The position numbers and the translations under genes are program-made. Below are positions 449 to 6,767 of a stretch of DNA of 19,860 nucleotides, piece after piece. This stretch comes from a virus (Duplodnaviria > Heunggongvirae > Uroviricota > Caudoviricetes). The notes beneath the pieces are model-generated. The model saw nothing but the letters and a program-made list of their open reading frames with translations. It did no database searches and had not been told where the DNA came from. Each line of letters begins with the position of its first letter. The first letter of the stretch is position 1. The stretch is from positions 1-19,860 of IMG/VR virus record IMGVR_UViG_2778261687_000001; one strand, given 5' to 3'.

Positions 449-640
449 TTAAAGCCCTGCCGGGACTTCGTTATTATCCATGCGAATAACTTTATCGACC
501 GGATAACAGTTACCGGGAATTTTCTGTTCCGCTGCGGCAGCCATGCATTCTTTCATTGAGCCGTATACGCCAGTAACCATGTCAACCGGTTCACCGGAAA
601 CAAGAAAAACCGTCAGAACAAGTGCAAATGTGGTATTCAT
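449..640 (-). CDS. ydfD: YdfD-like small membrane (lysis-associated) protein, 63 aa
   Basis: Internal ATG of track ORF 449..694 with AGGA upstream; translation MNTTFALVLTVFLVSGEPVD... has an N-terminal hydrophobic helix; start overlaps the upstream gene stop (ATGA); matches my recollection of Qin YdfD in length and sequence. Confidence 0.6.
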   Translation of the reverse strand: MNTTFALVLTVFLVSGEPVDMVTGVYGSMKECMAAAAEQKIPGNCYPVDKVIRMDNNEVPAGL

Positions 641-825
641 TGCCAGTATCCTTTTTGAGTCGGACGTAAACGGGCCAGCATAGAAAGAATGCAAATTTGA
701 TTTAATAACTCCCGTTCGTGTTTTCTCTTATTAATGGCATCTTCAGTAAATACAGGGTTACTGATTCTGACACCAATTTCAAAACAACCTTCAGACGTAT
801 TAACGTTTGGTAATAACGTTTCCAT
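637..825 (-). CDS. dicB: Cell-division inhibitor DicB-like protein, 62 aa
   Basis: Track ORF translation METLLPNVNTSEGCFEIGVRISNPVFTEDAINKRKHERELLNQICILSMLARLRPTQKGYWQ closely resembles DicB as I recall it (62 aa); sits just downstream of a DicF-like terminator hairpin, as in the Qin dicB operon. Confidence 0.7.
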   Translation of the reverse strand: METLLPNVNTSEGCFEIGVRISNPVFTEDAINKRKHERELLNQICILSMLARLRPTQKGYWQ

Positions 826-1002
826 TATCGCGTCCTCAACAATGAATTTTGTGATGCGGTGCCTGGTGCCTCCAGGTGACGTTAACCAGTTAACAATTAA
901 CGCCGGATACAGGGAAACCCATAAACACCCGATACGGGGGAACTAATCGCTTTTTAACTGTTCCGCGTGCGCTCAGCCGCATTCACCGCATCACAAAATT
1001 CA

Positions 1003-1066
1003 CTTTAAAAAGGGCGGACATCAGCCAGCAATGAAACTGATGCCGCCAAAGGTACAAATCAACATG
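1003..1066 (-). ncRNA. dicF: DicF-like small RNA (3' intrinsic terminator plus upstream UUUGGCGG...AUCAGUUU core)
   Basis: Minus-strand RNA reads ...UUGAUUUGUACCUUUGGCGGCAUCAGUUUCAUUGCUGGCUGAUGUCCGCCCUUUUU; stem GGCGGCAUCAG/CUGAUG-CCGCC followed by U5. It shares the UUUGGCGG, AUCAGUUU and GCCGCCCUUUUU-type blocks with E. coli DicF as I recall it and sits immediately upstream of dicB. Ends are approximate. Confidence 0.4.
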
Positions 1067-1361
1067 GAGTGTTGTAGCGGGGTTGTCACTCAGGCGTATG
1101 GTCAACCTGACAACCCGGTGCTACCAGTGGGGGTAAGGATAACCCCGCCATACTTACCGCCGCGCCATTTCGCGGAGTGCCACAACCGGAAGCGCACGGT
1201 CGAAGATACCGGCGACACGCAACAGAGGGAGAAATGACTTCGCCGTGCGCTTTCGTGTTGTGTGCCTGCTTTTAACCACGTCAGGCGAGGTGGTTCCTGT
1301 CATTCCCCAACGACAAGAAATCTGTATAATCTGGATATCCCCAACGATCCAAGGAAATCAT

Positions 1362-2859: not shown

Positions 2860-3141
2860 TTATCTGGGAAACTGACGTCTGGCGTGTACGATACTTACAA
2901 TTTCAATACTTGAAGCGGCCACACGGTAAAGAATTATATAATTAGGGTGGGCCACAATCTCACGCAAGCCAGGCACTCTGTCGCTTGGTGGATATAAATA
3001 CGGATGCTCAGATAACGGCAGTACGCAAGCTCTTAAGCGCTTCCACAAACGTTCTGCCGCATCTATGTCGAAACGTGCAATATAACTAGTTATATCATCT
3101 AGGTCGGCATCTGCGCTTTCAAGCCATAACACGGGTAACAT
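2860..3141 (-). CDS. RelE/ParE-family type II toxin, 93 aa
   Basis: Track ORF MLPVLWLESADADLDDITSYIARFDIDAAERLW...HARRQFPR; typical size and residue pattern of the ParE/RelE superfamily; lies 3 bp downstream of a small antitoxin-sized gene. Confidence 0.65.
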   Translation of the reverse strand: MLPVLWLESADADLDDITSYIARFDIDAAERLWKRLRACVLPLSEHPYLYPPSDRVPGLREIVAHPNYIILYRVAASSIEIVSIVHARRQFPR

Positions 3142-3144
3142 TTA

Positions 3145-3333
3145 CTACTTGCTCCGTTCCTTGCGTATTTTAGCAAAGCGTTCTGCCATTCTGCGCTCAA
3201 CCTCGTCATGGGGAATTGCTGGGCGCGGATCTGCAAGGCTTGCTGCTACTTTCGCACGCAGCCATTCGTTGTAACTGTTTTCTTGTTCAATGGTTTCAAA
3301 CTCAGAAACCATTGGTGAAAGGGCTGTATTCAT
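3145..3333 (-). CDS. Putative type II antitoxin, 62 aa
   Basis: Internal ATG at 3333-3331 with GAGGT 7 nt upstream; small charged protein (MNTALSPMVSEFETIEQENSYNEWLRAKVAASLADPRPAIPHDEVERRMAERFAKIRKERSK) immediately upstream of the ParE-like toxin and immediately downstream of the repressor gene. Confidence 0.5.
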   Translation of the reverse strand: MNTALSPMVSEFETIEQENSYNEWLRAKVAASLADPRPAIPHDEVERRMAERFAKIRKERSK

Positions 3334-3362
3334 TACATACCTCATCTTATGGATGATATAGA

Positions 3363-3770
3363 TTATGCTCGATGCCCTTTCTGGGCTGCGAGCCACCGTG
3401 CGACAGTGCGATCCATTGACTCTTTTTTGTCTTTCATATCTTTTAACATTTGTTCTTGATCTTCCTCTGGAAATGCTCCGAAAGTTTGAAGCAATTCTCT
3501 TTGTCTGGGACCTATTTTCATTGTATCAGGCACTACGACTTGCTCTTCTTCGCTTGGCGGTAACATAAACCAATACGGAGGAAAGCCCGTCACTTCGGAA
3601 AGCTTATCGAGATTAGCCGTTGATGGGCTTGTGATGCCATGAACCCACTTTTGGACCGATTGTTGGGCAACACCAATCCTGCGGGCTAGTTCTGCCTGCT
3701 TAAGTCCTGTTTTTTCCAGCACCAATTTTATTCGGTACGTGGTTATTTCAAGGGTAGTCATTCGCTTCAT
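3363..3770 (-). CDS. Prophage repressor, DicA/RacR-like HTH-XRE, 135 aa
   Basis: N-terminal HTH (LKQAELARRIGVAQQSVQKWVHG) and a C-terminal region resembling DicA as I recall it (RELLQTFGAFPEEDQEQ...); divergent from the Cro-like gene across operator repeats. Confidence 0.8.
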   Translation of the reverse strand: MKRMTTLEITTYRIKLVLEKTGLKQAELARRIGVAQQSVQKWVHGITSPSTANLDKLSEVTGFPPYWFMLPPSEEEQVVVPDTMKIGPRQRELLQTFGAFPEEDQEQMLKDMKDKKESMDRTVARWLAAQKGHRA

Positions 3771-6374: not shown

Positions 6375-6767
6375 ATGGCAAGCGTTTTTACACCTGAACA
6401 GCGGGAAGAACTGAAGGCACGAATTATCGGGCTGGTACACAGGAACAAACGCATGACGATGTCGCAACTGGAGAGTGCAACGGGGGCTGGCTGGCATACG
6501 GTCAGACGTTGTCTTGTGGATGTGGTTGCTTGTGGTGATTTGTACATATCCGGTAAATACGGTGTTTTTGTATCAGAACAGGCGTATCAGGCGTGGTGTA
6601 AAACTCCGAAGAAAGCTGACCCGGCACTGGTCCGGAAGTTACCTGATGGTGAAATCCGTCGCTACGACAGAGACATGAACATAATTTGCCGGGAATGCCG
6701 TAACAGCGAATCAATGCAACGTGTACTGGCGTTCTATCGGGGTAATTTTCAGGAGGTGATGGAGTGA
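6375..6767 (+). CDS. Hypothetical nin-region protein, 130 aa
   Basis: Track ORF with AGGAGG Shine-Dalgarno; no family recognised. Confidence 0.6.
   Translation: MASVFTPEQREELKARIIGLVHRNKRMTMSQLESATGAGWHTVRRCLVDVVACGDLYISGKYGVFVSEQAYQAWCKTPKKADPALVRKLPDGEIRRYDRDMNIICRECRNSESMQRVLAFYRGNFQEVME

Follow-up and report, generated by a model that had tools for sequence, protein, structure and literature searches.

The window analysed here, the whole stretch of 19,860 nucleotides, is an E. coli prophage of lambdoid type with a mosaic composition. The largest part of it covered by any complete genome is 78%, and strains NS-NP030 and RM8082, in which the prophage is complete from integrase to terminase, contain an 801-nt core of it at 100% identity. 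The early region shows the gene layout of the Qin prophage (dicC/dicA/ydfA...dicF/dicB): a divergent gene for a Cro/YdaS-like HTH protein is accompanied by genes for a repressor HTH protein, a DUF1391 (ydfA-like) protein, a small RNA, DicB and a DUF1482 protein. The dicB gene is annotated as such in the identical RefSeq loci, and just upstream of it, on the minus strand, lies a positional homologue of dicF (Table 1). Like dicF, this element is located in a dicB operon, downstream of ydfA/B/C-like genes and between the ydfA/C-like genes and dicB. Its extent is given as in the preliminary description of this DNA, with the 3' end at the last U of the tail and a 5' end that is a prediction.

Table 1. 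Features of the dicF-dicB region in the window, with the evidence for each
Feature	Position	Strand	Evidence or remark
DicF/KilS-family sRNA gene (candidate)	1007..1066	-	Rfam DicF match; alignment to K-12 dicF and kilS
Predicted single-stranded 5' tail CCAUGUUGAUUUGUACCUUU	1048..1066	-	Unpaired in MFE and centroid folds
Terminator hairpin	1013..1047	-	MFE fold, terminator scan, covariation across hairpin types
Hairpin lower 5' arm GGCGG	1047-1043	-	
Hairpin upper 5' arm CAUCAGUU	1042-1035	-	
Hairpin loop UCAUUGCU	1034-1027	-	8 nt
Hairpin upper 3' arm GGCUGAUG	1026-1019	-	
Bulged U	1018	-	
Hairpin lower 3' arm CCGCC	1017-1013	-	
U5 tail, intrinsic terminator	1007..1011	-	Sequence; invariant in all alleles
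Upstream part of inferred ~190-nt precursor	1067..1195	-	Near-identity to K-12 (L001:~3246-3375); boundary 1195 approximate
Structured dicF-dicB spacer	842..1003	-	~21-bp closing stem (1003-984 with 861-842), fold z -6.3
dicB, cell-division inhibitor, downstream operon gene	637..825	-	Pfam DicB PF05358, E 3.9e-36, full length
DUF1391 (ydfA-like) gene	2426-2656	same as dicB	Pfam

DicF is the textbook example of a prophage small RNA that controls host cell division and sugar metabolism, and in EHEC it has been reported to promote the expression of LEE virulence genes by activating the translation of pchA. Read along the minus strand from 1066 to 1007, the element in the window has the sequence CCAUGUUGAUUUGUACC UUUGGCGG C AUCAGUUU CAUUGCUGGCUGAUGU CCGCCCUUUUU, in which the last segment consists of CCGCCC and then UUUUU, and K-12 dicF of the Qin prophage (b1574; NC_000913 1649382-1649434) has the sequence UUUCUGGUGACG UUUGGCGG U AUCAGUUU UACUCCGUGACUGCUCUG CCGCCC. 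The UUUGGCGG-AUCAGUUU 5' arm, the CCGCCC of the lower stem and the U-tail are common to both. On either side of these sequences the likeness is even closer, as ~140 nt upstream, corresponding to the precursor, and ~180 nt downstream, corresponding to the structured spacer, are nearly identical to the flanks of K-12 dicF. The element is thereby placed between a DicF-type precursor of ~190 nt and the conserved spacer with dicB. These flanks, the DicB gene and the Rfam match described below confirm the proposal of the preliminary description, namely that a DicF relative is encoded on the minus strand upstream of a DicB-like gene. It had further noted, from a K-12 reference sequence that proved correct against NC_000913, that the 12 nt before the shared block differ from K-12, and indeed UUGAUUUGUACC at 1062-1051 takes the place of UUUCUGGUGACG. 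Its view that the 3' two-thirds form a conserved terminator core holds for GGCGG, AUCAGUUU, CCGCCC and the U-run, but breaks down in the loop and 3' arm, where the window has CAUUGCUGGCUGAUGU and DicF has UACUCCGUGACUGCUCUG.

The Rfam DicF model (RF00039) matches the element over its full length at 1012-1060 (-) with 38.7 bits (E 5.5e-7 in a 501-nt search). The match has statistical significance although the gathering score, 48 bits, is not reached, and the lack of a significant match, at which the preliminary description would have given up its proposal, is therefore not clearly the case. Its score being below 48, it is missing from an Rfam scan of the whole window at gathering thresholds, which reported a tRNA only and no DicF. 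For comparison, K-12 DicF scores 76.7 bits and the 3' part of K-12 KilS, a small RNA of the Rac prophage, 39.1 bits. Two alleles that combine a foreign 5' module with a DicF loop (L011 and L087) reach 61-63 bits, above the threshold of the model, and therefore it is the hairpin, and not the 5' tail, that puts the window element outside the curated family. The resemblance to DicF is not due to chance, and homology is settled by synteny, given the near-identical flanks and the DicB gene downstream.

In the predicted fold, a 13-bp hairpin carrying a single bulged U closes an 8-nt loop and leads into the U5. It has an MFE of -21 kcal/mol (z -4.0 against shuffled sequences) on a perfect 13-bp stem, whereas the irregular stem of K-12 DicF has -15.9 kcal/mol, and a consensus terminator scan also calls the hairpin. 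The element thus retains the rho-independent terminator hairpin with a U-tail that forms the 3' end of DicF. When 18 hairpin types were compared, 90% of the stem cells were paired and 3 pairs showed two-sided changes, which indicates that the hairpin is a conserved structure maintained on a varying sequence. By analogy with DicF and KilS (PMC5069750, PMC8175672), the U5 would double as the 3' Hfq-binding tail if the RNA is an Hfq-type sRNA. The 5' tail CCAUGUUGAUUUGUACCUUU, which is unpaired in the predicted folds, stands where DicF has its 5' seed UUUCUGGUGACGUUU and is a candidate target-pairing module. Within this tail, GA/UUU (1060-1059 before the stroke and 1058 the first U after it) by eye fits RN/WUU, the cleavage motif of RNase E, and the position aligns with the 5' end of K-12 DicF.

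No sRNA is annotated at the locus in RefSeq, where there is instead an antisense 'hypothetical protein' of 68 aa at 1031-1237 (+), predicted by PGAP in strain NS-NP030 (WP_157898028.1) and lying opposite the sRNA and its precursor. Both this ORF and a 40-aa sense ORF (983-1105, -) occur in the mechanical ORF list, and a protein-coding region would be an alternative account of the locus. We consider it extremely improbable, however, as neither ORF has a Pfam match, 41 of 108 unique homologous loci have an interrupted antisense ORF over the hairpin, 81 of the same 108 lack any sense ORF of 30 aa or more, only an RNA is annotated at this position in K-12, and conservation follows the RNA stems and not codons. 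The coding interpretation was rejected on these grounds, and, with no Pfam match and so many broken copies of its ORF, WP_157898028.1 is probably an annotation artefact.

A survey of the alleles found at this position led to a common allele whose place in K-12 is the Rac prophage, with sieB and kilR on its two sides. The MG1655 annotation places KilS there, an sRNA of 98 nt (b4833, 1418405-1418502). KilS was proposed on the basis of Hfq RIL-seq data and then verified on northern blots; it has yncL as a partner and apparently a separate start of transcription (Bar et al. 2021, PMC8175672). DicF is never mentioned in that paper, and no Rfam family of its own was found among the matches of KilS. 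A three-way alignment shows that K-12 dicF (L001:3383-3435) and kilS (L136:1906-2003) are homologous: both loci have the GGCGG...CCGCCCUUUUU scaffold, the downstream spacer and a slot upstream of a division inhibitor, and alignment of the kilS locus to the dicF locus brings out a common GGCGGCAUCAG...CUGAUGUCCGCCCUUUUU stem together with the spacer. By these alignments, the DicF/KilS family comprises small RNAs whose genes directly precede that of a prophage division inhibitor, dicB or kilR. In 1994 Faubladier and Bouché reportedly described dicF-hybridising sequences in other prophages, and their work may already hold part of the relation between Rac and DicF.

The window element is identical to KilS at 52/70 positions and to DicF at 47/67. 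It shares with KilS the entire stem (GGCGGCAUCAG...GGCUGAUGU-CCGCCCUUUUU), with GGCGGCAUCAG facing CUGAUGU-CCGCC and the conserved spacer following; the spacer is itself identical, the 5' segments are recognisably related (CAUUGCUGUGUGUAGUCC in KilS, CAUGUUGAUUUGUACC in the window), and the two RNAs stand at an equal distance from the DicF model. Hence the supposition that the terminator core had been conserved as a block of DicF does not survive, since loop and 3' arm have been replaced and the match is to KilS and not to DicF. The element is nonetheless distinct from KilS: its loop is UUUCAUUGCUGG, whereas that of KilS is UUUUUUUCUUGAAGUUCGG, and it has neither the CUUGAAGU loop motif nor the UGCUGUGUGUAGU 5' segment of KilS, its own 5' segment being related but different. 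It is followed by dicB and not by kilR, and so does not occupy the 5' UTR of kilR in a Rac-type prophage; it possesses the long DicF-type precursor that Rac is without; and a consensus-match scan showed no promoter-like site for it, while an independent start of transcription is reported for KilS (PMC8175672). We therefore describe it as a third type with a DicF-type precursor and dicB context, a KilS-type stem, a loop of its own, UUUCAUUGCUGG, and a tail of its own, GAUUUGUACC. DicF and KilS would accordingly be two faces of one modular locus and the window element a third. As KilS has been verified as an Hfq-associated sRNA, a member of the family with such a stem can be a genuine sRNA. A pairing scan against yncL gave weak predicted energies for KilS, DicF and the window allele alike.

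The replacement of modules bears directly on the targets of the RNA. Mutational and compensatory analysis has shown that DicF pairs with ftsZ through its 3' region and with xylR and pykA through its 5' end (PMC5069750); manX also pairs with the 3' region (PMC5861419). In the window element the 5' seed has been replaced, with UUGAUUUGUACCUUU in its tail in place of the seed GGUGACGUUU that pairs with xylR and pykA. The anti-SD CUCCG and CUGCUCUGCC, which pair with the ftsZ ribosome-binding site and with manX at +35..+53, are likewise gone, and the 3' region reads CAUUGCUGGCUGAUGU. We scanned four mRNAs, ftsZ, manX, xylR and pykA, by windowed duplex energies combined with opening energies derived from ViennaRNA unpaired probabilities, a home-made approximation of IntaRNA. 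Plain hybridisation in the manner of RNAduplex had been discarded, as it produced long loop-ridden duplexes and ignores intramolecular structure. For K-12 DicF the scan recovered all four known target sites: ftsZ at -28..-7 (DicF nt 32-53), manX at +35..+53 (nt 35-54), xylR at +9..+20 (nt 6-15) and pykA at +29..+38 and -18..+1 (5' end and loop). For the window allele it recovered none of the four.

The element is thus an unannotated relative of DicF and KilS, and both of the segments known to pair with targets are new in it. A change of targets would most likely follow from this; the element probably controls host genes other than those of DicF. The preliminary description had arrived at altered targets from the changed 5' region, as something that might release ftsZ and manX. 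Altered targets do remain the most likely outcome, but the route is a different one: since DicF pairs with ftsZ and manX by its 3' region, the loss of pairing with them would stem from the change in the loop and 3' arm and not from the change at the 5' end. With both pairing modules replaced, and not one, the conclusion is stronger than it was. If natural alleles do exchange both pairing surfaces, then copies of dicF identified by homology overstate functional redundancy, and the locus is a natural experiment in the evolution of sRNA seeds on a fixed scaffold. In practice, the window allele lends itself to testing on which module each DicF phenotype (filamentation, toxicity, effects on xylose or mannose) depends. 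Two further kinds of target were considered and set aside. Pairing with the translation-initiation region of the element's own dicB, suggested by the MFE fold of the full spacer, is equalled by 73/150, 76/150 and 59/150 shuffled sequences and is thus a chance result, and in the prophage window itself there are four non-self complementarities of at least 10 nt, against ~2 expected by our estimate, which is at chance level.

It is also conceivable, if improbable, that ftsZ is still repressed by way of a new seed, with the 5' tail UUGAUUUGUACCUU, with or without the upstream CUCC, pairing with the ftsZ leader at -23..-9 (or -7). The site overlaps the Shine-Dalgarno sequence and lies in the same leader segment as that of DicF, so that control of division would have survived a shift of the pairing surface out of the 3' region and into the 5' tail. 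The predicted duplex of 12 bp with one mismatch has a hybridisation energy of -12.0 and a total of -8.6 kcal/mol, equalled by 4/200 shuffled tails; with CUCC included the total is -10.9, equalled by 7/200 shuffles, and the best predicted energy for the ftsZ translation-initiation region among 42 alleles is that of the window allele. These figures correspond, however, to a nominal p of ~0.02-0.035, uncorrected for four targets and three assumed 5' ends, and the signal disappears (108/200 shuffles) if RNase E cuts at GA/UUU, the position homologous to the 5' end of K-12 DicF. The complementarity is, moreover, not conserved, as the closest sister alleles lose it (GAUUGGUACC, total -5.6; GAUUACC, -2.1). 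The predicted match of the 5' tail to the ftsZ leader is therefore marginal, and we treat it as a lead only.

The frequency of the allele types was determined in 5426 complete E. coli genomes. The DicF type occurs at 6694 places in 3969 genomes and the KilS type at 1431 places in 1428 genomes, whereas the window hairpin type, with a nearly invariant hairpin, occurs at 115 places in 92 genomes. Rfam-based annotation thus misses ~19% of the occupied slots, that is, the 1431 of KilS type and the 115 of window type as against the 6694 of DicF type. A 69-nt query has its best match at 99% identity or more in 16 records; strains with exactly the window allele include NS-NP030, RM8082, C5 and VG35A2, and one genome, Z1323CEC0014, has both the window-type and the canonical DicF allele. 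No INPHARED phage with the window allele was found, its sequence had no match in the literature searched, and a search of this literature for natural DicF variants yielded engineered alleles only. In a comparison of one genome per species, based on the shared downstream flank, the slot was present only in Escherichia and Shigella, besides two metagenome-assembled bins. The two, assigned to Proteobacteria and Candidatus Nanosynbacter, have the KilS allele and in our reading probably reflect contamination.

Among 120 IMG/VR prophage contigs and the additional loci that were fetched, we found 42 distinct alleles, which were grouped by 5' module (A, B1, B2, C and D) and by loop module (types 1-5), with at least five of each. 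Most of these occur in fixed pairs, and some are reassorted (among loci L010-L150, e.g. L011, L017, L087, L118 and L143). Reassorted forms include a KilS tail with a DicF loop, which passes the Rfam DicF model, a DicF tail with a third loop and hairpin in E. albertii, and a B2 tail joined to either of two hairpins. Crossing over could take place in the conserved UUGGCGG-AUCAG segment. Among the loci sampled, kilR accompanies the KilS loop in 26/28 cases and dicB the window loop in 7/10. The 5' tail varies even among sister alleles (GAUUUGUACC, GAUUGGUACC and GAUUACC). It is tempting to view the slot as a whole as a modular, recombining cassette for host-targeting sRNAs, with DicF and KilS as two of at least five classes that have interchangeable tails and loops on the GGCGG...CCGCCCUUUUU scaffold, and the window element as a third class with its own regulon; we hold this broader interpretation to be possible, at somewhat less than even chances. 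Were it to be correct, co-resident prophages would give a single cell several different DicF-like regulators, most of them invisible to current annotation. The present analysis in any case ties KilS to DicF.

The surrounding operon offers several indications of how the RNA might be produced. In K-12, RNase III generates a species of 190 nt and RNase E one of 53 nt, and some transcripts end at dicF, for example a ydfABC-dicF species of 1,146 nt (PMC10448788). The upstream segment 1067..1195 of the window is the homologue of the K-12 stretch that reaches from the RNase III cut to the 53-nt DicF. A consensus-match scan of 800-1600 found no sigma-70-like promoter, which fits processing from an operon transcript. 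The spacer between the element and dicB is nearly invariant across 103 unique loci, being more conserved than either the sRNA or dicB. At 793-1014 (-) it gives a full-length match to the Rfam STnc100 model (RF02076) with 37 bits, below the gathering score of 47, and the K-12 dicF-dicB spacer matches this model too. It has the same long closing stem as STnc100, but the match is sub-threshold, and the spacer adjoins the 3' end of the sRNA as a separate element. The dicF-dicB spacer could serve as an RNase III substrate.

The element clearly represents a known kind of element, namely a prophage sRNA with its terminator upstream of a division inhibitor. We consider it somewhat more probable than its opposite that it is the dicF homologue of the early-left (dicB) operon and gives rise to an Hfq-type sRNA of the DicF/KilS family, processed as in K-12 and with changed targets. 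By analogy with K-12, the operon transcript would begin at a repressor-controlled promoter once the repressor is relieved, RNase III would cut the conserved upstream structure at about 1195, and RNase E would then cut just 5' of the hairpin, while the 3' end would lie at the strong intrinsic terminator of the element itself, at 1007. The product would be an Hfq-type sRNA of ~50-60 nt, along with a long form of ~190 nt, consisting of a single-stranded tail of 11-19 nt, the 13-bp hairpin and the U-tail. A tail, a closed hairpin and a U-tail make up the usual shape of an Hfq sRNA. Such an RNA would not be expected to repress the four validated targets of DicF through the known sites, and if it acts in trans, it would reach a different target set by its own 5' tail. 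Since the KilS-type stem sequesters the former 3' pairing surface, any activity in trans must come from the tail or from the 8-nt loop. What supports this proposal directly is the homology, the synteny, the structure, the lost known complementarities and the frequency in the population; expression, processing, Hfq dependence and any activity in trans are inferred. Counting against it are the Rfam score under the curated threshold and the perfect stem, which buries the pairing surface of DicF and leaves a tail of about 11-19 nt, and the variation of that tail among sister alleles could mean that it is under no pairing constraint.

The same features allow the element to be seen as mainly cis-acting, that is, as a strong intrinsic terminator, serving in processing too, by which read-through of the early-left operon into the toxic dicB is kept low, with the tail as an unconstrained spacer and no targets in trans. 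The hairpin is stronger and more regular than that of DicF and nearly invariant, while the tail drifts, and conservation in the region is highest in the structured spacer downstream; the K-12 transcripts that stop at dicF agree with such a role. Furthermore, in natural deletion derivatives such as that of E. coli FDAARGOS_943 (L008:336-444; also H58-H60), a truncated ydfC runs directly into a 100% identical window-type hairpin. These derivatives have lost the 5' tail and the ~190-nt precursor, with a Rha-family regulator gene and not dicB downstream, and their retention of exactly the hairpin points to the terminator as the part under selection. Against this, both characterised relatives in the slot, DicF and KilS, are genuine Hfq-associated, trans-acting sRNAs that use the same terminator, and the loop UUUCAUUGCUGG is kept across different 5' modules, for which a pure terminator has no need. 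As the roles of terminator and sRNA 3' end are compatible, the two readings are not exclusive, and we regard a mainly cis-acting element as unlikely, while giving it appreciable weight beside the trans-acting sRNA with changed targets that we favour.

Several other features of the prophage deserve mention. The place of K-12 ydfB/ydfC is occupied by an ORF of 148 aa on the opposite strand (1515-1961, +), lying inside the early-left operon and immediately upstream of the precursor of the sRNA; Pfam gives no match for it, and RefSeq calls it 'hypothetical'. At 2860-3396 (-), an inserted ParE toxin (PF05016) with a PaaA2-type antitoxin (PF21217) separates the repressor gene of the prophage from the DUF1391 gene of the early-left operon. 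The tRNA mentioned above is a tRNA-Gly (anticodon tcc) at 14856-14928 (+), identified by both Rfam and ARAGORN, and in a related prophage (L002) a tRNA-Gly lies between a DNA-methyltransferase gene and the holin/lysis genes.
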